A stretch of 64,000 nt of DNA from an uncultured Thiotrichales bacterium (GCA_964430355.1 CAYSFW010000089.1:147750-211749), one strand, 5' to 3'; positions 22,981-43,543 are shown, numbered from the stretch's first letter. The notes: generated by a model from the letters alone, not told the origin. Numbers and translations are program-made.

Positions 22981-24402
22981 ATGGCAGTCAAGACCTACAA
23001 CGCTGGCGTCAAAGAGTATCGCCAAACATACTGGATGCCCGAATACACCCCGCTTGATACCGACATCTTGGCGGTATTCAAGATCACTCCGCAGCCCGGC
23101 GTTGACCGCGAAGAGGCCGCTGCCGCGGTTGCTGCCGAGTCCTCGACCGGCACCTGGACCACGGTGTGGACCGACCTGCTGACCGACCTCGACTACTACA
23201 AAGGTCGGGCTTACGCCATCGAGGATGTCCCGGGCGACGACACCTGCTTTTACGCTTTCATTGCCTACCCGATCGACCTGTTCGAAGAGGGCTCGGTTGT
23301 CAACGTGTTCACCTCGCTGGTCGGTAACGTCTTCGGCTTCAAGGCCGTTCGTGCGCTCCGTCTGGAAGACGTGCGCTTCCCTATCGCCTACGTGAAGACC
23401 TGCGGCGGTCCGCCGCACGGTATCCAGGTCGGGCGCGACATCATGAACAAATATGGTCGTCCGCTGCTCGGCTGCACGATCAAACCCAAGCTCGGTCTGT
23501 CGGCGAAGAACTATGGTCGTGCGGTGTATGAGTGCCTGCGCGGGGGGCTCGACTTCACGAAAGACGATGAGAACGTCAACAGCCAGCCCTTCATGCGGTG
23601 GCGCCAGCGTTTCGACTTCGTCATGGAGGCCATCCACAAGGCTGAGCGCGAAACTGGCGAGCGCAAGGGTCACTATCTGAACGTGACCGCACCGACGCCG
23701 GAAGAGATGTACAAGCGCGCCGAATATGCCAAGGAAATCGGTGCGCCGATCATTATGCATGACTACATCACTGGCGGCTTCTGCGCCAACACGGGCCTGG
23801 CCAACTGGTGCCGCGACAACGGCGTGCTGCTGCACATTCACCGTGCAATGCACGCGGTCATCGACCGTAACCCGCACCATGGCATTCACTTCCGAGTGCT
23901 GACCAAGATCCTGCGTCTGTCTGGTGGTGACCACCTGCACACCGGTACCGTGGTGGGTAAGCTTGAGGGCGACCGTGCCTCCACTTTGGGCTGGATCGAC
24001 CTGCTGCGCGAATCCTATGTCAAGGAAGACCGCAGCCGCGGCATCTTCTTCGATCAGGACTGGGGTTCGATGCCGGGTGCGTTTGCCGTGGCTTCCGGTG
24101 GTATCCACGTGTGGCACATGCCGGCGCTGGTCACCATCTTTGGGGATGACTCCGTACTCCAGTTCGGTGGCGGCACGCTGGGCCATCCGTGGGGCAATGC
24201 TGCGGGCGCTGCTGCCAACCGTGTGGCGCTTGAGGCCTGCGTCGAGGCGCGTAACCAAGGCATGCAGCTCGAGAAGGAAGGCAAGGAGATCCTCACCAAG
24301 GCTGCAGCTCACAGCCCAGAGCTGAAGATCGCCATGGAAACCTGGAAAGAGATCAAGTTCGAATTCGACACCGTTGACAAACTGGATGTCGCTCACAAGT
24401 AG
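22981..24402 (+). CDS. cbbL: Rubisco large subunit, form IA
   Basis: [13 protein letters not shown] start after GAGG RBS; [30 protein letters not shown]. Track extension 22885-22980 is promoter sequence. Confidence 0.98.
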
Positions 24403-24499
24403 TGCTGCATTTGTGAGCAGCACGGTCATCCCGGGCGGGCCGGTCGCGGCCCGTGCCGGGACTCAGTAAGCCAGATACCGACTTGAAAGGAACCCTTCT

Positions 24500-24853
24500 A
24501 TGAGTATGCAAGACTACAAATCGCGCCTCTCCGACCCGAGCAGTCGCAAGTTCGAAACCTTCTCCTACCTGCCGGCCATGAGTGAAGCGGACATCCGCAA
24601 GCAGGTGGAATACATCGTCAAGAAAGGCTGGAACCCCGCGATCGAGCACACCGAGCCAGAGCACGCGTTCGACCACTACTGGTACATGTGGAAGTTGCCG
24701 ATGTTCGGCGAGACCGATGTCGACAAGATCCTCGCGGAAGCTGAGGCCTGTCATAAAGCCAACCCGAACAACCACGTGCGCCTGGTTGGCTACGACAATT
24801 TCTCCCAGTCCAAGGGTGCCGAGATGGTGATCTACCGCGGCAAGCCCGTCTGA
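24500..24853 (+). CDS. cbbS: Rubisco small subunit, form IA (IAq-like)
   Basis: [22 protein letters not shown]; long N-terminus [18 protein letters not shown]. Confidence 0.97.
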
Positions 24854-24876
24854 TCGGCGCGGCGGACGGACACACC

Positions 24877-24916
24877 GGCCCCCGTCGCGCGCTGGCGTGG
24901 CGGGGGCCTTTTGTTT
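24877..24916 (+). terminator. Intrinsic terminator/attenuator between cbbS and cbbQ
   Basis: GGCCCCCGTCGCGC-gctg-GCGTGGCGGGGGCC followed by TTTTGTTT. Confidence 0.7.
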
Positions 24917-25006
24917 GTGTCGGTTGGCCGTCAGGTCGCCGTCCGGCGTGAAAGGTGCCGGTCTGAAGTCCAACCAACACGCACCTGACTGATTTGAGGA
25001 ATGTTC

Positions 25007-25810
25007 ATGGCCAGTATCATCGACCAGTACCGCATCACCAAAGAACCCTACTATCGCCCCGTTGCCGACGAGGTGGAACTCTTCGAGGCCGCCTACTCCG
25101 TGCGCATGCCCATGATGCTCAAGGGGCCGACGGGCTGCGGCAAGACCCGATTCGTCGAATACATGGCCTACAAGCTCGGCAAGCCGCTCATCACGGTGGC
25201 GTGTAACGAGGATATGACCGCGTCGGACCTGGTCGGCCGCTTTCTGCTGTCCGCGTCGGGAACCGAATGGCAGGACGGACCGCTTGCGATTGCGGCGCGG
25301 TACGGCGCCATCTGCTACCTCGACGAGGTAGTCGAGGCGCGCCAGGACACCACCGTCGTCATCCACCCGCTCACTGACAACCGCCGCGTCCTGCCCCTGG
25401 AGAAAAAGGGTGAACTGGTCCATGCCCACCCAGACTTCCAGATCGTCATCAGCTACAACCCGGGCTACCAGTCACTGATGAAGGACCTGAAGCAGTCCAC
25501 CAAGCAGCGCTTCGGCGGGCTCGACTTCACCTACCCCGACCACGCCATCGAGACTGAGATTGTCGCCCATGAATCCGGTGTAGATGCCGGTATCGCGGGT
25601 AAACTGGTGTCCATTGCTGAGCGCTCCCGCAACCTCAAAGGTCACGGACTGGACGAGGGGCTGTCGACCCGCATGCTGATCTATGCCGGCAGCCTGATCG
25701 CCAAGGGCGTCCAGCCACAAGCAGCGTGTCGGGTTGCCCTGGTGCGCCCAATCACGGACGACCCCGACATGCGCGATGCCTTGGATGCTGCGGTTTCGAC
25801 GTTCTTCTGA
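25007..25810 (+). CDS. cbbQ: Rubisco activase AAA+ subunit
   Basis: [44 protein letters not shown]. Start 25001 or 25007. Confidence 0.95.
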
Positions 25811-25913
25811 CTGTAGCGGGCGGTCGGGCCGATCGGTCATGATCTACTGTGTGGATTGCCGCCCGGGCTTCTACCGCGGCGGCTGACCGGCCTCACATAC
25901 AAGGTTGCGCACC

Positions 25914-28259
25914 ATGTCCATCCAACTCGAAGACTACGCTGAACTGCTGGAGGGGCTCTCCGAGCACAGTCAGGCCGCGCTGCTTGCCAATTGGCACGAA
26001 GCGACGAAGACGCTCTCGCCGCGGGGGCTCGACAACTATCTCAAAGGTGTGTCGGCTATCCGTGGACTCGGTCGGGGAGATTCGCTGGTGGAGACCTGGA
26101 TCGAGCAGGCTCCGATGGTGGCCAAGGAGGTAGGCGAGGATGTGGTGAGCGATCTAGCGACGGCTTCGCTGATGCTGGCCTCCAAGACATCCGGCGCAGT
26201 CATCGAACTGCTGCTGGCCACCGCACCGACCGCTGCCAACCGGCTGGGCGATGCCGAGCTGTTCCGCAAGTACCTGCAGTTTATCAATACCCTCATCGCG
26301 CAGGCACCACGTGGCGTGCGCCCGATGCTCGACAAGCTCGAGGTACTCTTTCAGAACCTCACCCTCGGTGGGCTACGCCGCTGGGCGATGTGGGGCGCAC
26401 ATGCCCACCGCACGAATTACGAAGAGCAGATCAAGTACTTTGGACTGGAGACCAAAGAGTCTCTGGCGATGCTGCAAAAGGAACGCAAGGGAACGCTGCT
26501 GGTGGACGTGCAGCGGCGCATCAACATGTACCTGCGCGCGCTCTGGGCGCGGGACTTTTTCATGCGGCCCACGGCGGGTGACTATGAAACGCGCGAGGGT
26601 CTCAAGCCCTACATCGAGGATTACCTGCTGCACCTGCCGGATGCCTACGATGACTTTGCGCCCGAGGGCCACGAGGCCGTTCCGGGGCTCGAGCTTTACC
26701 GCGCCGCAGCTGCGCACTGCGCCGCGCACGTGGTCGAAACGCGCCAGCCGATCTCCGCAGAGGGACTCAATCCGATGCAGATGGCGGTCATTTCGGCCAT
26801 CGAGGATGCGCGCGTCGAGACCCTGTCCGTACGCCGCTTTCCCGGGTTGAAAGCGCTGTGGCGCAAGCTGCACGTTGTCACACCGGAGCGCAGTGCCAGC
26901 ATTGGCGATTATCTGGACCGGCTGGCCCGCGCGCTACTCGACGACACCTATCGGGACGACGACCCGTGGATCATGCAGGGTCGGGAGCTTTTCACGAAAG
27001 CTATGTCGGAAAATCGTCTCGGCGACAACCGCACGTCCTGGGAAATTGGTGTGACGCTAGCGCACACGCTCAAGGATAAGGGCATCGCCTTCAATCCGCG
27101 CAAGGACGTGCTCTCCGCCCCCTACCGCGACGACAATCGTTACTTCTGGGAGTTTCAGGAATTCGACTTCGAAAAGGCCGCAGCCGCGGGCTACGAAAGG
27201 GTCAAGCAGGTACGCAAGTACGTGACCCTGATGGAAATGGTCAACGAGGTCGACAACGAGCTGGCCTCCGACGACGCGCAGGAGATCTGGGTGCTGCCCA
27301 CCGAGTTCTACCTCGACCAGGAGGGTGTGACCATTAACTCTCTCGAGGGTAAGGAGCCCGTTTCCGAGCCTGTGCACTATGCGGAGTGGGATTACCAGAT
27401 CCAGCTCGAGCGTCCGGCGTGGGTGACGGTGTACGAAAAGCGCGCGAAGCTCGGTGACCTGCAGCTCATCAACGACATCACCAGTCAGTACAAGCGCGAA
27501 ATCTACCGCATGAAGTTTCTGCTCGATGCGATGCAGCCCCAAGGTGTGCAGCGTATCCGCAAACTCGAGGATGGTGACGAGATCGACATCAACGCGGCCA
27601 TCGTCAGCTTTACGGACATCCGTCTCGGCAACCAGCCCGACCCGCGCATCATGATGCGCAGCGTGCGCAAGACGCGCGACTTTTCCATTCTGGTGCTGCT
27701 CGACCTCTCCGAGTCCACCAATGATCTCGTACAGGGACAGGATTACTCCGTGCTTGACCTCACGCGCCGTGCCTGTGTGTTACTCAGCGACGCCATTAGC
27801 AAGGTCGGCGACCCGTTTGCCATTCACGGCTTCTGCTCGGATGGCAGGCACGATGTGGAGTACTACCGCTTCAAGGACTTTGACCAGCATTGGGATGAAG
27901 AGCCCAAAGCGAAACTGGCGGGGATGACCGGTCAGCTCTCCACGCGCATGGGCGCGGCCATTCGCCACGCAGGGCATCACCTGAGGCTGCAGCGTTCGGC
28001 CAAGAAGCTATTGATCGTCATTACCGACGGGGAGCCGGCCGACATCGACGTGCGCGATCCCCAGTACCTGCGCTACGACACCAAAAAGGCGGTTGAGGAG
28101 GTGGGTAAATTTGGGGTCGTCACGTACTGCATGAGCCTCGACCCGCGAGCCGATAACTATGTCAGCCGCATCTTTGGGCAAAAGAATTACATGGTCGTGG
28201 ACCACGTACAGCGGTTGCCCGAGAAGCTCCCGCTCTTGTACGCTGGTTTGACGCGTTGA
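25914..28259 (+). CDS. cbbO: Rubisco activase adaptor, vWA-domain protein
   Basis: C-terminal vWA with MIDAS (LLDLSES...STRMGAAIRHA...TDGEP); follows cbbQ. Confidence 0.93.
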   Translation: MSIQLEDYAELLEGLSEHSQAALLANWHEATKTLSPRGLDNYLKGVSAIRGLGRGDSLVETWIEQAPMVAKEVGEDVVSDLATASLMLASKTSGAVIELLLATAPTAANRLGDAELFRKYLQFINTLIAQAPRGVRPMLDKLEVLFQNLTLGGLRRWAMWGAHAHRTNYEEQIKYFGLETKESLAMLQKERKGTLLVDVQRRINMYLRALWARDFFMRPTAGDYETREGLKPYIEDYLLHLPDAYDDFAPEGHEAVPGLELYRAAAAHCAAHVVETRQPISAEGLNPMQMAVISAIEDARVETLSVRRFPGLKALWRKLHVVTPERSASIGDYLDRLARALLDDTYRDDDPWIMQGRELFTKAMSENRLGDNRTSWEIGVTLAHTLKDKGIAFNPRKDVLSAPYRDDNRYFWEFQEFDFEKAAAAGYERVKQVRKYVTLMEMVNEVDNELASDDAQEIWVLPTEFYLDQEGVTINSLEGKEPVSEPVHYAEWDYQIQLERPAWVTVYEKRAKLGDLQLINDITSQYKREIYRMKFLLDAMQPQGVQRIRKLEDGDEIDINAAIVSFTDIRLGNQPDPRIMMRSVRKTRDFSILVLLDLSESTNDLVQGQDYSVLDLTRRACVLLSDAISKVGDPFAIHGFCSDGRHDVEYYRFKDFDQHWDEEPKAKLAGMTGQLSTRMGAAIRHAGHHLRLQRSAKKLLIVITDGEPADIDVRDPQYLRYDTKKAVEEVGKFGVVTYCMSLDPRADNYVSRIFGQKNYMVVDHVQRLPEKLPLLYAGLTR

Positions 28260-28355
28260 TTTGTCCGAGAAAACGCATTTGGCTGGCTGTCGGCGATGGA
28301 GCTTGCTTGGCGCGTGACCGCTGCCGCGCGAACCACCCAGGAACCGGACGAGAGT

Positions 28356-28655
28356 ATGAAAGACCCCACTTATGTTGGCTTCAATAACGACAAGCACGGC
28401 ATCACCCAACTCGGACGTATCGTGCTCGACGGATGGCTGTTTGGGTTGATCCCCGAGGCCGAGGATTGCAGTGGTTGGGAGATCGGGCGGATGCAAAACC
28501 TCATGGAGCGCGTGCAGGCCGAGTGGGACAAGTACGGCGGGTTACCTAGCCTGTTGCCGGAAGATCTGCGCACGCGCCACGCCGAGATTTACGACCGCGC
28601 GTTGAAACTCGCCCGGGCCAAGGGCTGGGACCCCGAACTCGGCGACGAAGACTGA
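28356..28655 (+). CDS. Conserved-looking hypothetical protein (99 aa) downstream of cbbO
   Basis: High G/C third-position codon usage; W-rich sequence ending ARAKGWDPELGDED; no family recognised. Confidence 0.65.
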   Translation: MKDPTYVGFNNDKHGITQLGRIVLDGWLFGLIPEAEDCSGWEIGRMQNLMERVQAEWDKYGGLPSLLPEDLRTRHAEIYDRALKLARAKGWDPELGDED

Positions 28656-29055
28656 CCGCGCGCGGCGCGTAGCCTCCTGTGCTGCGCGCTCAGCCAAGGC
28701 AAGTTCCTCCAGTCATACGCGGCGCCGATTCCTGGCGGTAAGGCGGCGCCGAAGATTGCCTGAACCCCGTCACCAACCGAGCCCCGCAGCGTTCGCCCCA
28801 CGCTTCGGCCGGTGGAATCTGCAGCCGTCCTGAATTTCGGCCCGTCCCCCCAGGCCCTTGGTGCAACCTGTCAGCGTCGTCGCCGACCGAGGCTGCACCG
28901 GCTTCCCGGTAATCTCACCCCACTATCTGCACCGGCGCCCAGATACTGGTGCCGATCCACCTTGGGTAACGTCATGAATCTCGCTAGTTACCCCGTGGCA
29001 GCCTTCAAAAGCCCGGTGTGTGTGAGCCCAGTCCGAATTCAGTGCGGCTGAATAA

Positions 29056-29109
29056 ACTTTAATTAAAGTAAATCATAAACAACAAAAATTATTGTTTATG
29101 GCTATAGCC
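29056..29109. promoter_or_regulatory. Palindrome-rich operator upstream of the dab operon
   Basis: ACTTTAATTAAAGT (29056-69), CATAAACAA-N9-TTGTTTATG (29074-100) and GGCTATAGCC (29100-09). Confidence 0.6.
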
Positions 29110-29322
29110 GCTACCATAAACGGGCCATTGTCAAATGTCTTGATGAGCCCGAGCTGTGAAGCTTGTCCGCAATACTTGTCACTCGCTACCGAACCAAGAC
29201 GGGCTCTGCCTGTTTCTGGGCGAGGGCGGAGTCAACGTCGCCGAGCGCCTCGAGCCTCAGGGGCGTGAGCCGCGTGGTGTCCCGGGCACACCAGCTGGCA
29301 CGGCCGGGAGGAGGAGGGGAGC

Positions 29323-31005
29323 GTGCCGGTCTTAGCCCTATTGCTCCTCGCCTCACCGCTGGTATCGGCTGTACTCATCACGCTACTGGCTGGTCGGCTG
29401 GCAGACCGCAAACCTATTATCGCGCGAGTGAGCGTCGGCTGCGCGTTGCTCACCAGTCTCGCCGCCAAGGGTATGCTGGCGATGAGGGTGCTCAATCAAG
29501 AAGCACAGACCGTCGATGCAGGGCTGGGCGATCTCTATCTGGATCCCCTGGCTGGCGTCATGGTCGTCGTCGTGGCGGCCATCAGTCTCGTGGTGCATAT
29601 CTACTCGGTCCGCTACATGGCAGAAGAGGCTGGATATGCGCGCTTTTTCGCGCTGCTCGACCTGATGACCTTCACCATCCTGCTGATGGTCACAGCAGGG
29701 GATCTCATCACCTTGCTGCTTGCCTGGCACCTCGTGGGCGTGCTGCTGTACTTCCTGCTCGGTCACGATCTGCAGCGCGCCGAACCACAGCGCTACGCCT
29801 TGCGGGCGCTGATCACCTACCGGCTCGGTGACCTTCCGTTGGTCCTTGCGGCACTGCTGCTGTACGACGCCTATGCGACGCTGTCGCTGCCGGATCTGTT
29901 TGCGCGGGTGGCCGCGGCGCCCCTTCAGCCGACCGTATTCGATCTGCCCATCGCACCTACGGTGGCCCTGCTCGTCGCGCTTGCAGCCTTTGCCCGATCG
30001 GCACAGGTCCCCCTGCACATCTGGCTACCCTACACAATGGAAGGGCCGACCCCGGTTTCTGCCCTTATGCATGCTGGTATTGTCAATGCCGGCGGTTATC
30101 TGCTCAACCGCTTCGCACCAGTTTACGTCCATGCCGGTGAGGTGTTGCACCTGGTGTTTGCCGTTGGTCTGATCACGGCCATATTGGGGTCGATGCTCAT
30201 GTTGACGCAGAACGACGTCAAAAAGGCGCTGGGTTACTCGACGATGGGGCAGATGGGCTTCATGTTTGTAGAGGTCGGGGTAGGGGCCTTCTCCCTTGCC
30301 ATCTATCACCTGATTGCGCACGGTTTGTTCAAGGGCACCCTGTTTTTGGGGGCAGGTGGCGTCATCGGTGAGGCGCGCCGGGCCGATGGCGTGCCTCACG
30401 ACGAGGTGTACGCCTTCGTGGTCCAGAAGCGACCGGCGGCGTCCAGGCTACCTTGGCTGCTGGCGGCGGGTATCACGGTCGTCGTACCCCTCTTGTTGCT
30501 GGGCTTGACGCGATGGCTGCTCGGTGGTGGCTTCGTCGGTGAGCAGGGCGCCATCATCCTGCTTTTTTTCGGTTGGGTGACTGGCGCCCAGTTATTGTTC
30601 GCCACCCACCGCCTCGAGGCCGAAAATCCCTGGCGGGTGATGGGCCTGAACATCCTCTCCCTCGCCGTCGTCGTCGCGGGCTACACGTTCATGGAACACG
30701 CCTTCGGGTACTTCCTGTACCCGGACAGAGACCTTGCCGAGGCGCTGTACGCGGCGGCGAGTATTCCGGCCCCCGTCTTTTATGGGCTGGTGGCGGTCGT
30801 CACGCTACTGATCGTGCTCGGTTGGATCGGGACGTTCTACGGCATGGCCAGTCGTGGTGCACGGACCGAGGAAACCTCGCGTCTGCGGCTCGGCGTTTAC
30901 TCGCTCGTATCCCGCGAGTTCTACGTTGCCGACCTTCACGACTGGCTGACGCGATCTCTGCTCGCTGTGTCGCGGCGGCTGAACTTATGGTCGAGGTGGA
31001 TTTGA
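29323..31005 (+). CDS. dabB: DAB/DAC inorganic-carbon pump membrane subunit (NuoL/MrpA-like)
   Basis: ARSAQVPLHIWLP, EGPTPVSALMHAG, KKALGYSTMGQMG, HLIAHGLFKG; upstream of a DUF2309 gene. Confidence 0.85.
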   Translation: MPVLALLLLASPLVSAVLITLLAGRLADRKPIIARVSVGCALLTSLAAKGMLAMRVLNQEAQTVDAGLGDLYLDPLAGVMVVVVAAISLVVHIYSVRYMAEEAGYARFFALLDLMTFTILLMVTAGDLITLLLAWHLVGVLLYFLLGHDLQRAEPQRYALRALITYRLGDLPLVLAALLLYDAYATLSLPDLFARVAAAPLQPTVFDLPIAPTVALLVALAAFARSAQVPLHIWLPYTMEGPTPVSALMHAGIVNAGGYLLNRFAPVYVHAGEVLHLVFAVGLITAILGSMLMLTQNDVKKALGYSTMGQMGFMFVEVGVGAFSLAIYHLIAHGLFKGTLFLGAGGVIGEARRADGVPHDEVYAFVVQKRPAASRLPWLLAAGITVVVPLLLLGLTRWLLGGGFVGEQGAIILLFFGWVTGAQLLFATHRLEAENPWRVMGLNILSLAVVVAGYTFMEHAFGYFLYPDRDLAEALYAAASIPAPVFYGLVAVVTLLIVLGWIGTFYGMASRGARTEETSRLRLGVYSLVSREFYVADLHDWLTRSLLAVSRRLNLWSRWI

Positions 31006-31006
31006 G

Positions 31007-31750
31007 ATGGCAGCGCTGATTGCATCCGGCCTGTTCCTGTCGCTCTACCCGCTGAGCGTCGTTTTGGGTGCGGTACATGCCCGCACGCGCTTGCCCGTCG
31101 CTCGCTTTGCCTTGCTGCTGCTCTGGCCTCAACTTGGCGTGTTGCTGGTGAATGTGGGGGCGACTCCCGTTCCCCAATGGCTAGTGGCTTGGGCGTTGGC
31201 GACTTCTGGATTCTATGCCCTGCGATTACTCACCGTCCGGGAACTTGCGCGCTACGCCGCCACATTCGCCGCATCCGCAGCGCCACTGGCCTGGGGACTA
31301 GCCGGAGGCGGTGCGGATACAGTGTCTGTTTCCCTATTTACGCTGTCGCTGACGCTGCCGATCGCCATGCTCAACCTACTCGAGGGCGCGATTTCGCGGC
31401 GTTTTGGTGCCGCCCATGCTTCGGTCAGTGTCGGCCTGGCCAGCGCGGCCCCGAGACTGGCCACGATGCTGTCCCTCGTCGTGCTGGCAGCAGCGGCGAC
31501 ACCGCCGTTTCCCGGCTTTTTCGCTATGCTGGCTCTGCTAACCCACCTGGAATGGCCAGCCAGTCTGGCCGCCCTCGGCATCTGGTTCATTTGGGGCTGG
31601 GCAGCGGCCGGTCTGTTTAAGCACCTCGTCGCTGGCTTGCCCCGTCAGGACAACGTCGACGATCTGAGCGTTAGTGCGAGTTGGCTGTCGGCCAGCGTGC
31701 TGACGGCGATGGCTTTGGCCACCCTTTATCTGGCGGGGCCAGTCGGATGA
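31007..31750 (+). CDS. Small antiporter-like membrane subunit of a three-component DAC
   Basis: Highly hydrophobic; TPPFPGF motif resembling the NuoM/N C-terminal half; translationally coupled to both neighbours. Confidence 0.65.
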   Translation: MAALIASGLFLSLYPLSVVLGAVHARTRLPVARFALLLLWPQLGVLLVNVGATPVPQWLVAWALATSGFYALRLLTVRELARYAATFAASAAPLAWGLAGGGADTVSVSLFTLSLTLPIAMLNLLEGAISRRFGAAHASVSVGLASAAPRLATMLSLVVLAAAATPPFPGFFAMLALLTHLEWPASLAALGIWFIWGWAAAGLFKHLVAGLPRQDNVDDLSVSASWLSASVLTAMALATLYLAGPVG

Positions 31751-35195: not shown

Positions 35196-35216
35196 AGGCG
35201 TTGGTCCGCTGGCGGC

Positions 35217-36191
35217 TCAGGTTGGTGCTGTCGATTGGGAGACGCCAAACCCCTCGTTCGTGCCACGCATCTGTGGCTGGACTTGCTCCCAGATGCGGCG
35301 GCCGTCCTGGAGCAGGAAGTCGCGAAACATACGAGCGGTTGGGGACAGCTTCTTGCCCTTGAGATGCACCGCGTACCACTTGCGGATCAAGGGGAAATGT
35401 TCCACATCAAGCACGGCGAGCAGCCCGGACTCCATTTCCAGCCGTAGGTTGTGGCGCGACAGCACGGAAATGCCCAAGCCCGCCATCACTGCCTGCTTGA
35501 TGGCCTCGCTGCTGCCGAGCTCCATGTACACGTTAGCGGAGAGTCCATGCTCGGCGAACAGGCGCGTGCGCGCTGCTCGGGTGCCCGAGCCGGGTTCGCG
35601 GGCGAGGAAGCGCTCCTCGGCGATGCGGGCCAGTGGAATGTTCCGTTGTCCTACCAGGGGGTGGTCTGGGTGGGCCACCACGACGATCGGATTGTCGAGA
35701 AAGTATTCCGCTTCCAGGTCCAGGTTTTCGGGCAGGGTCCCCATGATGACGATGTCATCAAGATTGTTTTCCAACCGCTCCACAACGCGCGCCTGGTTCG
35801 TGATGGTCAGCCTGGGTTCGACTTCCGGGTAATCCCGCAGAAAAACCCCCAGCAGGTGGGGCATGAAGTACTTGGCTGTGGTGATCGCGGAGAGCTTGAT
35901 TGGTCCCTTGACGCCTTTCTCCAGACCGATCATGTCCTCGTTGAGCACCTGAAGGCGGTCGAGCACGTCCCGGCTCGCTTCGAATAACTCCCGCCCCGCT
36001 TCCGTGAGAAACAGGCGCTTCCCTACCTGCTCTACCAAAGGGATGCCGACACTTTCCTCCAACCGCTTGATTTGTATGGAAACAGCGGGCTGCGTCAGAA
36101 ACAGCTCTTCGGCCACGCGGGTATAGCTGAGGTGCGTACCCAGGCTGTGGAACAGGCGGAGCTGGTGCAAGGTCACGTTTCGCAGCCGCAT
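35217..36191 (-). CDS. cbbR: LysR-family CBB regulator
   Basis: TLHQLRLF...AEELFLTQPAVSIQ HTH, TTAKYFMPHLLG, REPGSGTR, SSEAIKQAV. Confidence 0.85.
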   Translation of the reverse strand: MRLRNVTLHQLRLFHSLGTHLSYTRVAEELFLTQPAVSIQIKRLEESVGIPLVEQVGKRLFLTEAGRELFEASRDVLDRLQVLNEDMIGLEKGVKGPIKLSAITTAKYFMPHLLGVFLRDYPEVEPRLTITNQARVVERLENNLDDIVIMGTLPENLDLEAEYFLDNPIVVVAHPDHPLVGQRNIPLARIAEERFLAREPGSGTRAARTRLFAEHGLSANVYMELGSSEAIKQAVMAGLGISVLSRHNLRLEMESGLLAVLDVEHFPLIRKWYAVHLKGKKLSPTARMFRDFLLQDGRRIWEQVQPQMRGTNEGFGVSQSTAPT

Positions 36192-36201
36192 CTTACCCTC
36201 C

Positions 36202-36257
36202 GTTCATAAATTAATTTATATGAACAACATAATAACAATTAACTGTAGTTGATTGTT
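36202..36257. promoter_or_regulatory. Divergent cbbR/csoS2 control region with LysR-type boxes
   Basis: Palindrome ATAAATTAATTTAT (36206-19) inside GTTCAT..ATGAAC, and AACAATTAAC-tgta-GTTGATTGTT (36234-57). Confidence 0.6.
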
Positions 36258-36370
36258 CTTCCCAGCTACAGTGCGTGACATGCAGCGATTCCACCGGCCC
36301 ATGCGACCGCCACGAATCGCGCCCGGCGAGCACGCCGGGATTCCGTCAACGCACCACCGAGAGGAAAGAC

Positions 36371-38704
36371 ATGCCAGAGCAGACTGCGACAGCCGACGCC
36401 ATGGCGGGCTTGAGCGGAAGGGATTTTGCCCGTGCGCGCCGGGCCATGTTGAGTCAGACCGGGAAGAAGGGCAATGGGCTACTGACGCCGCAGGGCGTGG
36501 CCTCGATTCAGCGCGAACGTCTTGTCAACGCGTCAAGCGCGCCCGCGACGCTGCCGGCTGCGCCAACTACGGGAGCCATAACGGATTCCCCCGCGCTGTC
36601 GTTCGAGGTCGCCAACGAGGTGGCTGCAGATGTTGCCTGTGCGTTGATCGAAAGCTCACCAGACGTCGCCGCCGCCGTGGAAGCGGACAGCGGCATCAGC
36701 ATGCGCGACTACTGCCGCCAGCGCCGGCAGGCGCTGGCCACGAAGGGCAAAACGGCCTTGCCCCCAAAGCCGGGGTCGGCCATCGGCGGGAGTGGCTCTT
36801 CGGGCCATGCGGTGGCCAGGCAGCGACGCATCGAGCAAAGTCTCAAGGGGCGTGGTAGTGCGCCGCCGGCGCGTCCCAGCGGCCGCATCCGTCCGCAAGT
36901 CGAGCCACCCCCCAAGGTTGAAACGGGGACCACGCTCGCTGGCCAGACGGTCACTGGCACGCAGGTCGAGCGGACGGTCAAGGTCACCGGCAATGAGCCG
37001 GGCTCATGCCGTGTGATCACCGGCACGGAGTACATCGGACAGGAGCAGTTCGACAAGTTCTGCATATCGCGGCCCAATCCCGCGCCAGCCAAGGTCGGCG
37101 CGAGCGCTACCAGTCGTGGCCAGGTGGTCAGCGGCACCGAGGTGGCCCGCACACCGAAGGTCACGGGTGGTGAGGCCGGCACATGCAAGCCGGTGACCGG
37201 CACCGAGTACTTGGGTAATGAGACGTTCGTCGAGTTCTGCGCTGGAAAGAACCTGATTGCCAGACCCGAGAAGGTGGTCATGGGCACCAGTGCCCGGCGG
37301 GGGTTGACTATCACCGGTAGCGACGAGGCTCGTCCCGTCGCGGTCACAGGCGTCGAGGCCGGGGCGCGGCGGACGATCACTGGATCGCAGTACAACGATG
37401 CGGGCGTTTCACGCCTGACCATCAATGGTCCGCGCAAGGTGGCGTTGACCCACACGTTGGCGGGCCGTCCCGTTTCGGGTACCGAGGTCGGGCGTTCTTT
37501 CAAGGTCACCGGCGACGAGGCAGGGGCGTGCCGGACGATCTCGGGTACGGAATACCTCTCGAACGAGCAGTTCCAGAGCATCTGTCACACCCGTCCCCCC
37601 GCAGGAGCGGCCAAGGTGGGCGAAGCGGCGAGTCTCACTGGTCAGCGGATCACTGGCAATCTGGTCGAGCGCACCGCAAAGGTCACGGGCAACGAGCCGC
37701 GCGCGGAAGGGCGCATCACCGGCTCTCAGTATGAGCGCTGCGCCACACCCGGCACCGCGCCGGCCAAGGTGCGTGAGATGCACACGTTGGCTGGCCGCCC
37801 GGTTACGGGGGGACTGCTGGTCGGGCGTGTGTCCCCAAAGTTGAGCGGTGACGAGCGGGGTGGGTGCCAGCCCGTCACCGGAACCGAGTACGCAGGGGCG
37901 GAACAGGCCGCCGCTTGCCCGACGTTGGAGCCGGTAACGCCTGCTGCCAAGGTTGATGTCACCCACACCCTGCGCGGTCAGGTGGTTTCCGGGACACCCC
38001 TGGGCCGTTCCACCCTTGTGACCGGTGATGAGCCAGGCAGTCACCTGGCCATCAGTGGGACACCCTATGCGGCCAGCGAGCAAGTCGCCGGTGCGTGTGG
38101 GTGCGGTTGCGGTTGCAAGGGTCCCGAGTCTGCCGAGGTCGATACGCTGCCCCAGGCCCATCCCCGCTTCCAGCCACCTGGCCGTACCCGTGCCATGGCC
38201 ATGAGCATGATGCCGGCCGAGCCCCGCCCGCAGTCGTTCAGCGTTACGGGCCCCGCGCGTGAGGCTCGCAGCCGCATCACCGGCACTGGCTATGGCGGCT
38301 CCGGGCGCATCACCGGCCCCGTGAACATGGCCACGGGCCTGGTCTCGGGTACGCCGGAATTTCGCTATCGCGACGAGGGCAGCTTCATCGCCCGCAATTG
38401 CCGGGACGCCATGCCCAGTCAGGCGGCGGTTGGGGATTCGCGCATCACCGGCGAGGGTCGCGATGCCGGCCAGCGCATCACCGGCGATGATTGGGGGCGC
38501 AGCGAGCGTGTGACCGGTACCGAAGGCCGCTGGGCACAAACCCGAAATCCGACCTTGCGTGGCGTCAGTTGTGGCATGTCCGCGGGCGCTTGGGCCAACA
38601 AAGGCCGCGAACGCCCCGAGGTGCCCTTGGCGAAGGTCACGGGTAGTAGCGGCAACGCGGGCAAGGGGGCGGTGGTCACGGTCTCTGGCGGGGCGCGGGG
38701 CTAA
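36371..38704 (+). CDS. csoS2: Alpha-carboxysome scaffold protein CsoS2
   Basis: Three N-repeats (RDFARARR, RDYCRQRR, HAVARQRR), seven M-repeats with (V/I)(T/S)G triplets and GTEY, C-terminus VTVSGGARG; GAGGA RBS before ATG 36371. Confidence 0.93.
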   Translation: MPEQTATADAMAGLSGRDFARARRAMLSQTGKKGNGLLTPQGVASIQRERLVNASSAPATLPAAPTTGAITDSPALSFEVANEVAADVACALIESSPDVAAAVEADSGISMRDYCRQRRQALATKGKTALPPKPGSAIGGSGSSGHAVARQRRIEQSLKGRGSAPPARPSGRIRPQVEPPPKVETGTTLAGQTVTGTQVERTVKVTGNEPGSCRVITGTEYIGQEQFDKFCISRPNPAPAKVGASATSRGQVVSGTEVARTPKVTGGEAGTCKPVTGTEYLGNETFVEFCAGKNLIARPEKVVMGTSARRGLTITGSDEARPVAVTGVEAGARRTITGSQYNDAGVSRLTINGPRKVALTHTLAGRPVSGTEVGRSFKVTGDEAGACRTISGTEYLSNEQFQSICHTRPPAGAAKVGEAASLTGQRITGNLVERTAKVTGNEPRAEGRITGSQYERCATPGTAPAKVREMHTLAGRPVTGGLLVGRVSPKLSGDERGGCQPVTGTEYAGAEQAAACPTLEPVTPAAKVDVTHTLRGQVVSGTPLGRSTLVTGDEPGSHLAISGTPYAASEQVAGACGCGCGCKGPESAEVDTLPQAHPRFQPPGRTRAMAMSMMPAEPRPQSFSVTGPAREARSRITGTGYGGSGRITGPVNMATGLVSGTPEFRYRDEGSFIARNCRDAMPSQAAVGDSRITGEGRDAGQRITGDDWGRSERVTGTEGRWAQTRNPTLRGVSCGMSAGAWANKGRERPEVPLAKVTGSSGNAGKGAVVTVSGGARG
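37834..37851 (+). other. -1 programmed ribosomal frameshift site (CsoS2A/CsoS2B)
   Basis: In-frame C CCA AAG in M-repeat 6 (TCC CCA AAG); the -1 frame reads CCC AAA GTT GAG CGG TGA. Same heptamer as the known Halothiobacillus csoS2 frameshift. Confidence 0.75.
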
Positions 38705-38717
38705 GGAGGGCAATCGC

Positions 38718-40247
38718 ATGAATACCCGCAACGCCTACGCTCTGCGCGTGAAGGCCCAGCGCAAGGCCGCACCAGCGCGCGCTCCCTACGGCCTCGGTAC
38801 GCCGACCGCGACGCTTCAGACGCGGCAGGCCACAGGTTTGGAAGCGGCGGACAAGTCGACCTTGCGCCACGCATTGACGGACCGGTCCATGAATGCGCGG
38901 CTGGCCCACTGCGAGGAGTCCGTCAAGGGGCGCTTCGACACCATCGCGCCGACGCTTAAGTGTATTTCAGCCCTTCAGCATCTCGAGGACTTCCCGGAGC
39001 GCGCGCAAGCCATCGCCCGTGAGCGGCTGGGCTACGAGCTGCCCGTCAATATCCTGGAGGATGCCTGGGTTGCGGGCCTGGATCTGAAATCGCTGTACGC
39101 GCACTGCGTCTTCGAGGCGCTCAAAGGCGCGTCGGCGCAATTCGTGCATGACATTCAAAACCAATTGGAGCGCGTGCAGGATGCCCGCAACTTCTTCCTG
39201 GAGTGCGGCTACCACGCGGTGGACATCAGTCCATGTGCCGACGGTCGCCTCAAGGGGCTCTCCCGTTACATCCTGCGCCTGCCACTGACTTCGCTGACAC
39301 GGCGCAAATCCTATGCCGGTGCCCTGTTCGACGTCGAAACCGACATGCGTCACTGGGGTGTCGTCGAACTGCGTCGCTTTCGCGAGGGTGTGCCCACCAC
39401 GGCGGATGCCGGAACGCGCTATCTCAAGATCGCGGTCTACCACACCAGCTCGTCTGACCCGACGCATCAAGGGTGCGCCGCGCATGGGAGCAACGAGCAC
39501 AAGGCGATCGACGCAGCCCTCGAGCGGCTCGTCCAATTCCGCCAGGCCATCGAGAACAGCTTTTGCTGCGGCGCGAGCACCGACTTGCTGCTCCTCGGCG
39601 TGGACACCGACACGGACGCGATCAAGGTTCACATACCTGACAGCTGCGGTGACCTCTCTCCGCATCGTGTCCTCGACAACGCAGATCTCTACCGGCAAAC
39701 CGCTGGCATGTCCGCCGACGCTGCGCGAGCGGCGGTTTATGAGGCCATCCGGGCTGCCAGTCGTCAGGGTGGGTGGGGCGCGGGAGCGGGCGAGCCGCAC
39801 GATGGCATGCGTCGGTTCATCGCCAACCTGTTGATCAACAACTTCTCGCAGATCGAGTACGTGAACGAGCTCCACGGCGGACGCTACGCCGACGTTGGCC
39901 ACGCCGAGCGCTTCATCTGTGTGGGGGATGGGTTGGAAGAGGTGCAGATGCGCAACGTCGTCTACTACGCGCATTTGGCCACCCTGGAGGAAGGGGTCGC
40001 GGATGTGGACGTTGGCGTCAAGATCTTCAAGGAGCTCAACGTTAAGCACGGGCTACCCGTGCCTGTCGTGGTGCATTTCCGCTATGACAGTCGTGTGCCG
40101 GGCTCCCGCCAGCGGGCCGCCGACAAGGCCCGTCGTGTAGGAGAAGCCATCCAGAGCCGTTACGCCGATCTGAGCAGCAAGGGCTTCTTGGTATGCCGTC
40201 TCCTCGTACAGGACCAACCCACGGGCAGTTCGCTGGAGGAGGTATAA
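38718..40247 (+). CDS. csoSCA: Carboxysomal carbonic anhydrase CsoSCA
   Basis: SPCADGRL, YHTSSSDPTHQGCAAH Zn ligands, GVDTDTDAI, GHAERFI. Confidence 0.95.
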   Translation: MNTRNAYALRVKAQRKAAPARAPYGLGTPTATLQTRQATGLEAADKSTLRHALTDRSMNARLAHCEESVKGRFDTIAPTLKCISALQHLEDFPERAQAIARERLGYELPVNILEDAWVAGLDLKSLYAHCVFEALKGASAQFVHDIQNQLERVQDARNFFLECGYHAVDISPCADGRLKGLSRYILRLPLTSLTRRKSYAGALFDVETDMRHWGVVELRRFREGVPTTADAGTRYLKIAVYHTSSSDPTHQGCAAHGSNEHKAIDAALERLVQFRQAIENSFCCGASTDLLLLGVDTDTDAIKVHIPDSCGDLSPHRVLDNADLYRQTAGMSADAARAAVYEAIRAASRQGGWGAGAGEPHDGMRRFIANLLINNFSQIEYVNELHGGRYADVGHAERFICVGDGLEEVQMRNVVYYAHLATLEEGVADVDVGVKIFKELNVKHGLPVPVVVHFRYDSRVPGSRQRAADKARRVGEAIQSRYADLSSKGFLVCRLLVQDQPTGSSLEEV

Positions 40248-40252: not shown

Positions 40253-40516
40253 ATGAAGATCATGCAAGTGGAGAAAACCCTGGTGTCGACCAACCGAATC
40301 GCTGAACTCGGCCACCGCCCACTATTAGTGGTGCGTGAAAAGGCTGGCGGCGCGCGCCAGGTCGCCGTAGATGCCATCGGCTGCATTCCGGGCGATTGGG
40401 TCATCTGCGTGGGCTCGTCCGCGGCGCGCGAGGCAGCGGGCAGCAAGGAGTACCCGTCGGACCTCACGATCGTTGGCATCATCGATCACTGGTCCGCAGA
40501 AGAGGCCAAATCCTGA
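40253..40516 (+). CDS. csoS4A: Carboxysome vertex pentamer
   Basis: MKIMQVEKTLVSTNR...VAVDAIGCIPGDWVICVGSSAAR...DLTIVGIID. Confidence 0.93.
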   Translation: MKIMQVEKTLVSTNRIAELGHRPLLVVREKAGGARQVAVDAIGCIPGDWVICVGSSAAREAAGSKEYPSDLTIVGIIDHWSAEEAKS

Positions 40517-40767
40517 TGGAAATCATGCAGGTACGTTCCGACTTGGTAGCCACGCGGCGCACCTCTGGCCTCAAGAACCACTCCCTTCGGGTGGTCGTGG
40601 ATGCCAAGGGCAACCTCTCCGTGGCGTGCGATCCGGTGGGTGTGCCGCCGGGTAAGTGGGTGTTTACCGTGAGTGGCTCGGCTGCACGGTACGCGGTTGG
40701 CGATCCTAAGGTCCTCACCGACCTGACCATTGCCGGAATCATTGATAACTGGGACCCGGAGACCTGA
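40516..40767 (+). CDS. csoS4B: Carboxysome vertex pentamer
   Basis: MEIMQV...VACDPVGVPPGKWVFTVSGSAAR...DLTIAGIIDNW. Confidence 0.93.
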   Translation: MEIMQVRSDLVATRRTSGLKNHSLRVVVDAKGNLSVACDPVGVPPGKWVFTVSGSAARYAVGDPKVLTDLTIAGIIDNWDPET

Positions 40768-40828: not shown

Positions 40829-41122
40829 ATGGCAGCAGTAACTGGTATTGCGCTTGGCATGATCGAAACCCGCGGCCTCGTCCCCGCTATCGAGGCGGCG
40901 GATGCCATGACCAAAGCGGCGGAGGTGCGCCTCGTGGGCCGTGAATTTGTTGGCGGCGGCTACGTCACGGTGATGGTGCGCGGTGAGACCGGTGCGGTGA
41001 ACGCAGCGGTGCGCGCCGGGGCCGATGCCTGCGAGCGCGTGGGTGACGGCTTGGTGGCCGCGCATATCATCGCCCGTGTGCACTCGGAAGTCGAAGGCGT
41101 GCTGCCCCAGGCTACATCCTGA
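40829..41122 (+). CDS. csoS1: Carboxysome shell hexamer CsoS1 (copy 1)
   Basis: GIALGMIETRG...AADAMTKAA...FVGGGY...HIIAR. Confidence 0.95.
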   Translation: MAAVTGIALGMIETRGLVPAIEAADAMTKAAEVRLVGREFVGGGYVTVMVRGETGAVNAAVRAGADACERVGDGLVAAHIIARVHSEVEGVLPQATS

Positions 41123-41169: not shown

Positions 41170-41466
41170 ATGGCTGAGATTACTGGTATTGCCCTTGGCA
41201 TGATTGAAACTCGTGGCCTTGTTCCCGCCATCGAGGCGGCAGATGCCATGACCAAAGCGGCGGAAGTCCGACTGATTGGTCGGCAGTTCGTCGGTGGGGG
41301 CTATGTCACCGTGCTGGTTCGTGGTGAGACGGGGGCGGTCAATGCCGCTGTACGTGCCGGTGCAGACGCCTGCGAACGGGTTGGCGATGGGCTTGTCGCC
41401 GCGCACATCATTGCGCGCGTTCACTCCGAGGTGGAGGGCATCCTGCCCAAGGCGCCTAGCGCGTGA
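41170..41466 (+). CDS. csoS1: Carboxysome shell hexamer CsoS1 (copy 2)
   Basis: Same BMC-H motifs; GRQFVGGGY variant. Confidence 0.95.
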   Translation: MAEITGIALGMIETRGLVPAIEAADAMTKAAEVRLIGRQFVGGGYVTVLVRGETGAVNAAVRAGADACERVGDGLVAAHIIARVHSEVEGILPKAPSA

Positions 41467-41529
41467 CGTAACTGCCGTGAGGTGGGCGTAACGCCCCCTC
41501 ACGAACAGCATTCTTCCTGGAGAACTGAA

Positions 41530-41868
41530 ATGTCGGCTATGACTGGAATCGCGTTGGGGATGATCGAAACCCGCGGGTTGGTGCCCGCCATCGAGGCGGC
41601 GGATGCCATGACCAAGGCCGCGGAAGTCCGCTTGATCGGGCGCGAGTTCGTCGGTGGGGGCTACGTCACGGTGATGGTGCGTGGCGAGACGGGTGCCGTG
41701 AATGCTGCAGTGCGTGCCGGTGCCGACGCCTGCGAACGGGTCGGCGATGGGCTTGTTGCCGCGCACATCATCGCGCGCGTCCACGCCGAGGTCGAAGGCG
41801 TGCTGCCGAGCTCGCCGAGCGCCGCAGGCGGCGGACGTGATGGCGAGGTCACCACGCGGCGCAGTTGA
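41530..41868 (+). CDS. csoS1: Carboxysome shell hexamer with C-terminal extension (CsoS1B-like)
   Basis: BMC-H core plus tail SSPSAAGGGRDGEVTTRRS. All three csoS1 genes share the leader GGAGAAC(T/C)GAAATG. Confidence 0.93.
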   Translation: MSAMTGIALGMIETRGLVPAIEAADAMTKAAEVRLIGREFVGGGYVTVMVRGETGAVNAAVRAGADACERVGDGLVAAHIIARVHAEVEGVLPSSPSAAGGGRDGEVTTRRS

Positions 41869-41878
41869 GGGTTGGGTG

Positions 41879-42355
41879 ATGCGTGCAAACCCTCGACTGG
41901 CTGGTTACCTCACGCAGGCGCTGGATCATGAGCTGAGCGTGGTTCAGCAGTACCTCACGCAGTCCTGCCTATGTCGGCTGTGGCGGGAGGACGCACTGGC
42001 AGATTATTTCCGCAGGGAGGCCGACGAGGAACAAAGCCACGCAGGCAAGTTGGTCTGCCATTTATTGAGTTTGGGCCTTGCCCCCAACGGTACCCGGCTC
42101 AAACCCGTGCGGCCCGGCCGCGAACTGCGGGAGATGCTGTTGCTCGACCGCCAGCTGGAGCTGGATGCGGTGTTGCTCTACCAGGACGCCCTGCACTACG
42201 CCGAGCGATGCCGGGACGCGGCGGCCTCAGCCCTGTTTGCCGAGCTGCTGGCCGACGAGGAAGCGCACTTGGCGGAACTCGATCGCATGCTCGCTGGACT
42301 TGCGGATCGGGACTATGACCCAGAGAGTTTCTTGAGAGAGGTGTGCCATGTCTGA
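41879..42355 (+). CDS. Bacterioferritin-like protein associated with alpha-carboxysome loci
   Basis: Ferroxidase-like residues ALDHEL..QQY, EEQSH, LEL...Y, DEEAH. Confidence 0.8.
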   Translation: MRANPRLAGYLTQALDHELSVVQQYLTQSCLCRLWREDALADYFRREADEEQSHAGKLVCHLLSLGLAPNGTRLKPVRPGRELREMLLLDRQLELDAVLLYQDALHYAERCRDAAASALFAELLADEEAHLAELDRMLAGLADRDYDPESFLREVCHV

Positions 42356-42608
42356 ACTACCGCCGCCGGGATGGCAGGTCCAAACCAAGCCGCCCATGAT
42401 GATGCGGCGCTTTGAATTTCCAGACTACACGGCTACTCGCGCCTTCCTGGACGGGCTCGCAAAGCTTTCGGAGAAATGCGGCTACTACCCCGACCTCAAT
42501 TTCGCCAAGACCCATGTCAGCGTCACGCTCGCCGCCCGCGATGTGGCGCTGGGTGCAGATGAGTACGGCTTTGCTAGCCGTGTGAACGCCCTGGTCGAGA
42601 GTCAGTGA
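42348..42608 (+). CDS. Pterin-4a-carbinolamine dehydratase-like Rubisco assembly factor (acRAF/Raf2-like)
   Basis: W...RRFEF.DY..TR.FLD.LA.LSE..GYYPDLNF pattern; usual position after the bfr-like gene. Confidence 0.8.
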   Translation: MSELPPPGWQVQTKPPMMMRRFEFPDYTATRAFLDGLAKLSEKCGYYPDLNFAKTHVSVTLAARDVALGADEYGFASRVNALVESQ

Positions 42609-42617
42609 GGGACGACG

Positions 42618-43274
42618 ATGGGTGGCCATGTGCTTGCAGTGGCCAGCCTGAAGGGCGGGTGTGGAAAATCGACACTGGCGTGGAACCTCGCGGCGGGCCT
42701 GACCGAGCGCGAAGGGCATGGGCGAGTGGGATTGCTTGATGCGGACCCGCAAGGTGCGCTTACCCACTGGGCAGCGTGGGCGCGGGGCAGCGGATCGGGT
42801 GCTGCGAGGGCGCCGGAGGTCATGCCAGCCCACCTCGAGCCCGCACAGACCTTGGCCCAGGTACGCGAGCGGTTCGCCTGGCTGCTGGTGGATTGTCCGC
42901 CTTCCGTTGACATGTCCATCACCCGCCGGGTCCTTGCACTTGCCGACACCGTGGTTGTGCCCGTACTGCCCTCTCCGCTCGATCTTTGGGCCAGCGCGCA
43001 AACGATGCACGCAGTGCTCGATGCGCAAGTGAACAATCCCACGCTCGCGGCGTGGCTGCTCTTGAATCAGGTAGAGCCAAGCAGCGCACTCTCCCGCGCC
43101 ATGCGCAGGGCGCTCGCCGAGCAAGCGTTTCCGACGCTCACGAGCGTCGTTCGCCGTCGAGCGGCGTTCCGCAGCGCGGCCCTGGAAGGCGTGAGTGTCT
43201 ATCAACTCGGTGCGCGTGGTCGGCAAGCGGCGCGCGACATTGACCAAGTCATCGAGGAGCTACTGCGACCATGA
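42618..43274 (+). CDS. mcdA: ParA/MinD-like carboxysome positioning ATPase
   Basis: Deviant Walker A KGGCGKST, DADPQG, VDCPP, PSPLDLWA; followed by an McdB-like gene. Confidence 0.78.
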   Translation: MGGHVLAVASLKGGCGKSTLAWNLAAGLTEREGHGRVGLLDADPQGALTHWAAWARGSGSGAARAPEVMPAHLEPAQTLAQVRERFAWLLVDCPPSVDMSITRRVLALADTVVVPVLPSPLDLWASAQTMHAVLDAQVNNPTLAAWLLLNQVEPSSALSRAMRRALAEQAFPTLTSVVRRRAAFRSAALEGVSVYQLGARGRQAARDIDQVIEELLRP

Positions 43275-43543
43275 GCAAACTGGACGACAAACTTGCCGCC
43301 AGCGTCAAGCTGGCGGTGGATCCGGCGGCTACAGCCAAGCCGGCCCCAAAGAAGTCAGCGGTAAGGAAATCTGCCAACAGCGCGTCCGTGAAAACGCCGA
43401 GCCCGGCGCCCGCGGTCACGCCGTCGCCCGCGCGACAGCCCGAGCCCTGCGGCGCGGCTGCCGCGGGCGATAAGGTCGAGGAGGTGATTCAGGGGGCTGC
43501 TCGCGGCAGGTCGCTGCATCCACGCCGCGTCTGGCCGGATTAG
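43271..43543 (+). CDS. mcdB: Carboxysome positioning adaptor
   Basis: MSKLDDKLAASVK N-terminus, disordered Pro/Ala/Lys-rich middle, C-terminal LHPRRVWPD. Confidence 0.8.
   Translation: MSKLDDKLAASVKLAVDPAATAKPAPKKSAVRKSANSASVKTPSPAPAVTPSPARQPEPCGAAAAGDKVEEVIQGAARGRSLHPRRVWPD

Follow-up and report, generated by a model that had tools for sequence, protein, structure and literature searches.

The 64-kb stretch of DNA analysed here (GCA_964430355.1 CAYSFW010000089.1:147750-211749, the window in what follows) comes from an uncultured Thiotrichales bacterium and carries an alpha-carboxysome (cso) operon without Rubisco genes at its head. A separate block encoding Rubisco, cbbL-cbbS-cbbQ-cbbO, lies upstream on the same strand. 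The DNA is G+C-rich and chromosomal (0.60-0.68), with no rRNA gene and no match in an Rfam scan of the window. A first-pass annotation had csoS2 as the opening gene of the shell operon, with a divergent cbbR 179 bp away, and the only Rubisco of the window 11.5 kb upstream, followed by cbbQ-cbbO. The gap of 179 bp is exact, and tblastn and Pfam searches agree with the rest, with 11,517 bp between the stop of cbbS and the start of csoS2. The search for further Rubisco copies covered the window, and tblastn found no second CbbL or CbbS across its 64 kb.

The Rubisco block begins with cbbL (22981-24402, +), which encodes a form IA large subunit of 473 aa with the Pfam domains RuBisCO_large and RuBisCO_large_N. 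The small subunit gene cbbS (24500-24853, +; 117 aa; Pfam RuBisCO_small) is followed just 3' by a hairpin of 14 pairs, 12 of them G-C, and then a T-run (24877..24908, +), found by a consensus scan. This strong hairpin is likely an attenuator or a terminator. Next come cbbQ (25001-25810, +; Pfam AAA_5 and CbbQ_C), encoding the MoxR-type AAA+ Rubisco activase subunit, and cbbO (25914-28259, +; Pfam VWA), encoding its VWA-domain adaptor of 781 aa with the start taken from the gene calls of a comparison locus, L096 (such loci are cited by number throughout).

The shell operon begins with csoS2 (36371-38704, +), which encodes a scaffold of 777 aa with the domain CsoS2_M (PF12288, E 1e-134) and, by motif scan, N-peptides and [VI][ST]G repeats. 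The carboxysomal carbonic anhydrase gene csoSCA (38718-40247, +) has all three Pfam domains (CsoSCA_N, CsoSCA_cat and CsoSCA_C), and a tail of about 49 aa precedes the conserved part of the protein. The vertex pentamer genes csoS4A (40253-40516) and csoS4B (40516-40767) share the Pfam domain EutN_CcmL and occupy 40253..40767 (+). They are followed by three csoS1 genes for shell hexamers (40829-41122, 41170-41466 and 41530-41868, +), recognised from Pfam BMC, tblastn and the translations. The operon ends with genes for a bacterioferritin-like protein (41879-42355, +; Pfam Ferritin), a pterin-dehydratase-like protein that is a candidate Rubisco assembly factor (42348-42608, +; Pfam Pterin_4a) and a ParA/McdA-like protein (42618-43274, +; Pfam ParA-type, NCBIfam ParA partition ATPase), and with a small ORF (43271-43543, +) called McdB-like from its size and position. 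The order of these accessory genes is also seen in L093-L101. CsoS2, a three-domain CsoSCA and genes for CsoS1 hexamers and CsoS4 pentamers mark an alpha-carboxysome operon. The cbbL-cbbS pair that usually stands directly before csoS2 is absent, and the locus is atypical because cbbR lies 179 bp before csoS2 with no Rubisco between them.

The csoS2 junction and the type of Rubisco

The regulator gene cbbR (35217-36191, -; Pfam HTH_1 and LysR_substrate) encodes a LysR-type protein divergent from csoS2. Its top NCBIfam model is CbbR, with a score under the cut-off, and it is 83-85% identical to the csoS2-adjoining cbbR of L081-L083. The AT-rich spacer between cbbR and csoS2 (36192-36370) can be aligned with its counterparts between cbbR and csoS2 in L081-L083 and L032, and also with the cbbR-cbbL spacers of five typical loci (L084, L062, L041, L070 and L065). 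The alignment spans a dyad, TTCATAAATTAATTTATATGAA, a second box, ATTAACTGTAGTT, and the -10-like CTACAGT. Since the spacer is homologous to cbbR-cbbL spacers, csoS2 sits under a promoter that elsewhere serves cbbL.

Comparison of CsoS2 relatives leads in the same direction. Those with 59-74% identity and a readable upstream region have cbbR directly before csoS2: L081, L082, L083, L094, L095 (Sulfuritortus calidifontis), L098 (Thiobacillus sp.) and L101 (Parasulfuritortus), with L032, known from a partial match, showing the same junction. It is found in nine of the ten related contexts read; the tenth, L093 (Thiobacillaceae bacterium), starts at csoS2. Among named CsoS2 proteins, the closest is that of a Thiobacillaceae bacterium (74%), ahead of those of Thiobacillus sp. 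(68%), Sulfuritortus calidifontis (64%) and Parasulfuritortus (61-62%). Relatives at 53-58% (L084, L099, L100 and L062) have the order cbbR-cbbL-cbbS-csoS2, and the CbbS of L099 and L100 has 110 residues. The proposal that csoS2 occupies the usual slot of cbbLS thus holds, as the spacer aligns with the cbbR-cbbL operator and promoter and the nearest typical loci keep cbbLS there. Spacer homology and the nearest typical loci together support a clean loss of the linked cbbLS. Judged from this handful of contexts and not from a tree test, the pattern would fit a single loss at the base of a Thiobacillaceae clade. L004 and L005 seemed to encode a fusion of CbbS with CsoS2, which a stop codon rules out.

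An artefact of assembly or binning is a practically negligible explanation for the missing cbbLS: nothing was found in its favour, G+C is even across the region, the junction recurs in the related contexts just described, and an identical CsoS2 with the order cbbO-orf119-dabB-orf247-dabA-PII-cbbR-csoS2 is found on two short metagenome contigs, which come from separate assemblies of two sequencing runs.

The Rubisco itself was typed by comparison with relatives of CbbL, for which one genome per species was scanned and the best 80 of at least 600 stretches were kept; the source genome is not among them. Loci were labelled by the gene after cbbS, which is cbbQ in 54 (Q-type) and csoS2 in 17 (C-type; 18 with Halothiobacillus neapolitanus). 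Relative to H. neapolitanus CbbS (1SVD_M), the window CbbS has an insertion of six residues (RLSDPS) near the N-terminus, which agrees with the longer N-terminus reported in the first-pass annotation. The insertion is complete, or nearly so, in 52/54 Q-type small subunits vs 0/18 of the C-type. Within this set the window CbbS is 58-86% identical to Q-type and 51-63% identical to C-type proteins. Identity of CbbL does not discriminate, with 95.8% to the Q-type L001 and 95.1% to the C-type L002. In neighbour-joining trees of the 80 best matches, CbbL falls in a clade of 57 (52 Q-type, four unlabelled, the window and no C-type; bootstrap 100) and CbbS in a clade of 59 with no C-type member (bootstrap 50). 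The C-terminus of CbbL, KLDVAHK, is the commonest Q-type end (26/54) and occurs in no C-type sequence; it fits the KLDxxHK motif that has been tied to CbbQO action (Tsai et al. 2021, PMC8718961). The best solved structures for the window CbbL are 9IQO and H. neapolitanus 1SVD, and an exact-protein look-up returned no record of an identical CbbL.

These features are those of form IAq: cbbQ and cbbO lie directly downstream of cbbS, CbbS has the insertion, and the sequences group with cbbQ-linked ones. The marks of form IAc are absent, since cbbS does not precede csoS2, CbbS has the insertion and CbbL has K348. The window Rubisco is therefore supported by its sequence as the cbbQ-linked (IAq) type. 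The IAq-like identity first assigned to it is borne out by the CbbS insertion, the CbbS identities and the CbbL clade, and neither subunit clusters with IAc. The sharp division of IAc from IAq that was assumed at first is weaker than expected, given a CbbL 95% identical to that of the csoS2-linked L002. Published trees also lack a clean split (PMC8718961; PMC9164163), and the two are not separate clades in Tsai et al. 2021 (PMC8718961).

Possible packaging of the enzyme

CsoS2 binds Rubisco through N-peptides. The window protein has two with the canonical pattern RxxxxxRRxxxxxxGK (aa 17-32 and 112-127) and a third that is degenerate (aa 146-161, HxxxxxRRxxxxxxGR). Of the three N-repeats that had been annotated, two therefore stand and the third is not a full repeat. 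In the majority of CsoS2 proteins with at least 59% identity, the motifs are retained near residues 17 and 107. The residue profile of this group cannot be distinguished from that of the CsoS2 at 55-58% and below, from sampled loci with cbbLS, so the comparison gives no sign of N-peptide adaptation to a new cargo. A motif kept with the same profile argues for continued selection on CsoS2 to bind a Rubisco.

On the Rubisco side, the N-peptide contacts in H. neapolitanus are CbbL D26, D69, Y72, F346 and D360 and CbbS D94 and Y96 (Oltrogge et al.). The window enzyme has CbbL D26, D69, Y72, Y346 and D360 and CbbS D94 and F96, within YDNF. Both changes, F346Y and Y96F, keep the aromatic ring, and each occurs among C-type enzymes (Y346 in 5/17 C-type CbbL, F96 in 2/18 C-type CbbS). 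The first-pass annotation was correct that the aromatic residues are kept (CbbL Y72 and Y346, CbbS YDNF) and overstated them as support for a CsoS2 interface, since most cbbQ-linked enzymes keep the same residues. Y72 is present in 42/54 and D94 in 43/54 Q-type enzymes, and the contacts are also kept in the cbbQ-linked L031, whose metagenome-assembled genome (MAG) carries the csoS2-linked L062 as well. Because they are common in Q-type enzymes, the contact residues prove little and do not discriminate; contact-residue signatures were accordingly rejected as a class marker, as they do not separate cbbQ-linked from csoS2-linked enzymes.

One alignment column, CbbL 348 (window 24022-24024), separates the two classes almost perfectly, and it is the only one to do so. 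The residue is P in 17/17 C-type sequences and in H. neapolitanus, and K in 94% of the Q-type, and it lies two residues from contact 346. In H. neapolitanus the CbbS insertion is no bar to packaging and CbbL is the determinant (Menon et al. 2008, PMC2570492). Position 348 is a candidate for the packaging determinant within CbbL that Menon et al. 2008 did not pinpoint.

The best-supported reading of the locus, and one that seems fairly probable, is that the linked cbbLS was lost and that the carboxysome uses the cbbQ-type enzyme; packaging is suggested by sequence and by analogy with Thiobacillus thioparus, which has a single cbbLS and visible carboxysomes (PMC5248467). An ancestor with the order cbbR | cbbL-cbbS-csoS2 would have lost its carboxysome-linked cbbLS, leaving csoS2 directly under the former cbbL promoter and CbbR operator. 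The cell would retain a single form IA, cbbQ-linked Rubisco with its CbbQO activase, from a cbbLS block transcribed separately and with a strong hairpin after cbbS. CbbR would activate the cso operon, with low CO2 as the probable condition, and the CsoS2 N-peptides would then gather this same Rubisco for the shell proteins to enclose with CsoSCA. The DAB system encoded between the two blocks would supply bicarbonate, and at other times the Rubisco would work free in the cytoplasm. The fuller claim leans only just towards the probable: a carboxysome that has swapped its cargo, having lost its own Rubisco and packaging an enzyme of non-carboxysomal ancestry with a CbbS insertion, K348 and a CbbQO tail, so that one pool is split between cytoplasm and organelle by expression of the shell operon. 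No experimental test of such a swap was found in the literature searched, where the idea is already in print for Thiobacillus.

Several observations weigh against use of the cbbQ-type enzyme by the carboxysome. Besides the contact residues, which are shared so widely, the window CbbL has K348, the cbbQ-linked state, while Sulfuritortus has P348. Carboxysomes of H. neapolitanus excluded the non-carboxysomal CbbL of another species (PMC2570492). The count of Rubisco genes is limited to 64 kb of the genome, and the trees draw on a narrow sample of best matches. Thiobacillus denitrificans also has the split layout, yet carboxysomes have not been seen in it despite its csoS1-4 (PMC9164163).

The residue at 348, the exclusion in H. 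neapolitanus and the limited view of the genome would all suit a second, IAc-type cbbLS elsewhere in the genome that supplies the cargo while the window Rubisco stays cytosolic. A Thiobacillus sp. MAG (L012) does carry a typical cbbR-cbbL-cbbS-csoS2 locus. However, the CsoS2 of L012 is just 41% identical to that of the window, which places it in a different cso lineage. In the typical loci sampled, IAc cbbLS always comes with its own csoS2 operon, so a lone IAc pair would be unusual. T. thioparus makes carboxysomes with one form I Rubisco (PMC5248467), and T. denitrificans is described with a single form I set that is not of the cso kind. A hidden second pair is therefore considered unlikely.

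It is similarly improbable that the cso operon is silent, decaying or making Rubisco-free shells, with free Rubisco and DAB sufficing for the cell. The case of T. denitrificans is in keeping with this, as is the ability of H. neapolitanus to build empty shells without carboxysomal Rubisco, known from the literature. However, all eleven reading frames of the operon are intact and of normal length, and the McdAB-like positioning genes are kept. The operon, cbbR and the Rubisco-binding motifs of CsoS2 are conserved down to about 60% CsoS2 identity, which is not expected of relics, and T. thioparus, as noted, has carboxysomes.

Control regions and neighbouring genes

AT-rich dyad regions precede cbbL (22860-22980), dabB (29070-29130) and csoS2 (36192-36370). 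The region before cbbL (22860..22980, +) has the dyad TTCGATAAGAATTATCGAA and a TATAGA half-site and lacks an adjoining cbbR; the gene upstream of cbbL encodes a plsC-like acyltransferase. It can be aligned with the sequence between cbbR and cbbL in Q-type loci and keeps a single ATAGA half-site. The region before dabB (29070..29130, +) has the dyads ACTTTAATTAAAGT and ATAAACAA..TTGTTTAT, a putative LysR-type operator at a G+C dip of 0.35. A 28-nt stretch upstream of dabB is 89% conserved in Parasulfuritortus (L101). A sigma-70 promoter scan gave nothing in 22600-36500. The sequences suggest that enzyme, transporter and shell are separately controlled units.

The non-coding gap of 668 bp before dabB (28656-29322) contains the G+C dip of 0.35 and two perfect AT-rich dyads; a decayed cbbR was sought in it, between orf119 and dabB, and no remnant was found. 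A second CbbR-like LysR regulator is encoded at 47234-48185 (+). It shares 49% identity with the cbbR at 35217 and 53% with the cbbL-adjoining CbbR of L032. Its gene diverges from that of a CitMHS-family permease (45577-47205, -), and the spacer between them contains TATAGAAAATCATCTATA, an ATAGA-N7-TCTAT box as in the cbbR-cbbL spacers of cbbQ-linked loci. This regulator may control cbbLSQO from a distance.

The gene orf119 (28296-28655, +), after cbbO, encodes a conserved small protein with no Pfam or NCBIfam match. It stands beside cbbLSQO in more than 25 cbbQ-linked loci of many genera, usually right after cbbO, and is, judged by this position, an uncharacterised companion of CbbQO.

Between the two blocks lie the genes of a DAB inorganic-carbon uptake system, recognised from DabA (PF10070) adjoining a PF00361 membrane subunit. 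The gene dabB (29323-31005, +; Pfam Proton_antipo_M and Proton_antipo_N) encodes a membrane protein resembling proton-pumping subunits, and dabA (31747-34872, +; 1041 aa; Pfam DabA, E 6e-260) has its start from the L096 gene calls. They are separated by orf247 (31007-31750, +), a membrane protein of 247 aa that weakly resembles NuoM/MrpD in its C-terminal part. The position of orf247 is conserved in L017, L032, L034, L055, L086 and L101, from Thiobacillus-like bacteria, Nitrobacter, Sulfuriferula and Parasulfuritortus, and the protein may be a third DAB component. A gene for a P-II-like protein (34869-35195, +; Pfam P-II) follows dabA. The block dabB-orf247-dabA-PII-cbbR|csoS2 is common to the window, L032 and Parasulfuritortus, and is partly present in L083.

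Downstream of the cso operon is a gene for a compact CsoSCA homologue of 350 aa (43826-44878, -), the 'CsoSCA2' of PMC9164163, with a weak CsoSCA_cat match and 26% identity to the catalytic domain of the window CsoSCA. Sulfuritortus (L095) and L093 have this gene after their cso operons too. A phosphoribulokinase gene (53019-54017, -) lies about 9 kb downstream of the operon, so the region groups several functions of the Calvin cycle and of CO2 concentration. Upstream of the Rubisco block are genes for the E1 and E2 components of 2-oxoglutarate dehydrogenase (6666-10778, -). The absence of Krebs-cycle genes from obligately autotrophic Thiobacillus species is discussed in the paper on the T. 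thioparus genome (PMC5248467), and the 2-oxoglutarate dehydrogenase genes may bear on the capacity for heterotrophic growth. A protein of 1193 aa (14649-18230, +) has Ig-like/ASH domains, a TSP3 repeat, an outer-membrane beta-barrel and an OmpA C-terminal domain.

Comparison with known loci

The split layout has been published for Thiobacillus and relatives, so the arrangement in the window is not new. T. thioparus DSM 505 has a single cbbLS with cbbQO, termed IAq, and electron microscopy shows that it makes carboxysomes (Hutt et al. 2017, PMC5248467). Its 11-gene cso cluster lies about 9 kb away, does not start with cbbLS, and has a divergent cbbR between the blocks (PMC5248467). Hutt et al. 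considered a cso cluster without cbbLS perhaps diagnostic of the genus Thiobacillus (PMC5248467). A later review lists Annwoodia, Sulfuritortus, T. denitrificans and T. thioparus in the split class, with the blocks 2.6-21 kb apart on the same molecule (USF Genomics Class et al. 2022, PMC9164163); the spacing in the window falls within this range. It treats the layout as a trait of the Thiobacillaceae, discusses loss vs rearrangement, proposes separate control of the two blocks and says that packaging of such a Rubisco awaits verification (PMC9164163). The novelty attached to the locus at first was therefore overstated, since the same inference had been printed for T. thioparus (PMC5248467) and for the Thiobacillaceae (PMC9164163, section 8).

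The window resembles T. thioparus in having cbbLS followed by cbbQ and cbbO, a cso cluster of about 11 genes, a divergent cbbR and blocks roughly 9-12 kb apart. It differs in that its blocks are co-directional, whereas the Rubisco block of T. thioparus is on the opposite strand. In the Thiobacillus-like L032 and L034 the Rubisco block is likewise inverted relative to the window arrangement, with its own cbbR beside cbbL. Sulfuritortus calidifontis J1A (AP018721) shares with the window a co-directional cbbL-cbbS-cbbQ-...-cbbO, then a divergent cbbR | csoS2-csoSCA-csoS4AB-3x csoS1-bfr-PCD-ParA. It also shares the compact CsoSCA homologue downstream on the opposite strand and the CbbS insertion. 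Unlike the window, it has cbbR beside cbbL, and a gene resembling those of gamma-carbonic anhydrases stands between its cbbQ and cbbO. Its two blocks are not separated by DAB genes, and SbtA and P-II come after the operon. Residue 348 of its CbbL is P, against K in the window, and its CsoS2 is 64% identical to the window protein. What is particular to the window is a Rubisco block co-directional with the cso operon, DAB genes between them and a cbbL without an adjoining cbbR, a gene that is beside cbbL in most of the best 80 loci.

Typical alpha-carboxysome loci (H. neapolitanus and, nearest to the window, L099, L100, L062 and L084) share the cso gene set and order from csoS2 on, the divergent cbbR, a homologous operator region and the CsoS2 N-peptide motif. 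They differ in having cbbL-cbbS between cbbR and csoS2, a CbbS without the insertion and P348 in CbbL. Their CbbL C-termini are more varied, with KLDVQNR the commonest, whereas the window has KLDVAHK. Form IAq loci (Badger and Bek 2008; Tsai et al. 2021, PMC8718961) resemble the window in the cbbQ after cbbS, the CbbS insertion and the KLDxxHK end. That form is defined without an association with carboxysome genes, whereas the window has a Rubisco-less cso operon 11.5 kb away.

Cultured T. thioparus is already as testable, and the window offers no easier test. What it adds is a variant layout, a candidate discriminating residue at CbbL 348, and evidence that the proposed loss belongs to a single clade of CsoS2, one frequently met in metagenomes. 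If the cbbQ-linked Rubisco truly is the cargo, the rule of IAc inside and IAq outside would fail for a whole family of sulfur oxidisers. Carboxysomes would then be able to adopt a foreign Rubisco, which would be useful knowledge for attempts to load other Rubiscos into engineered carboxysomes.

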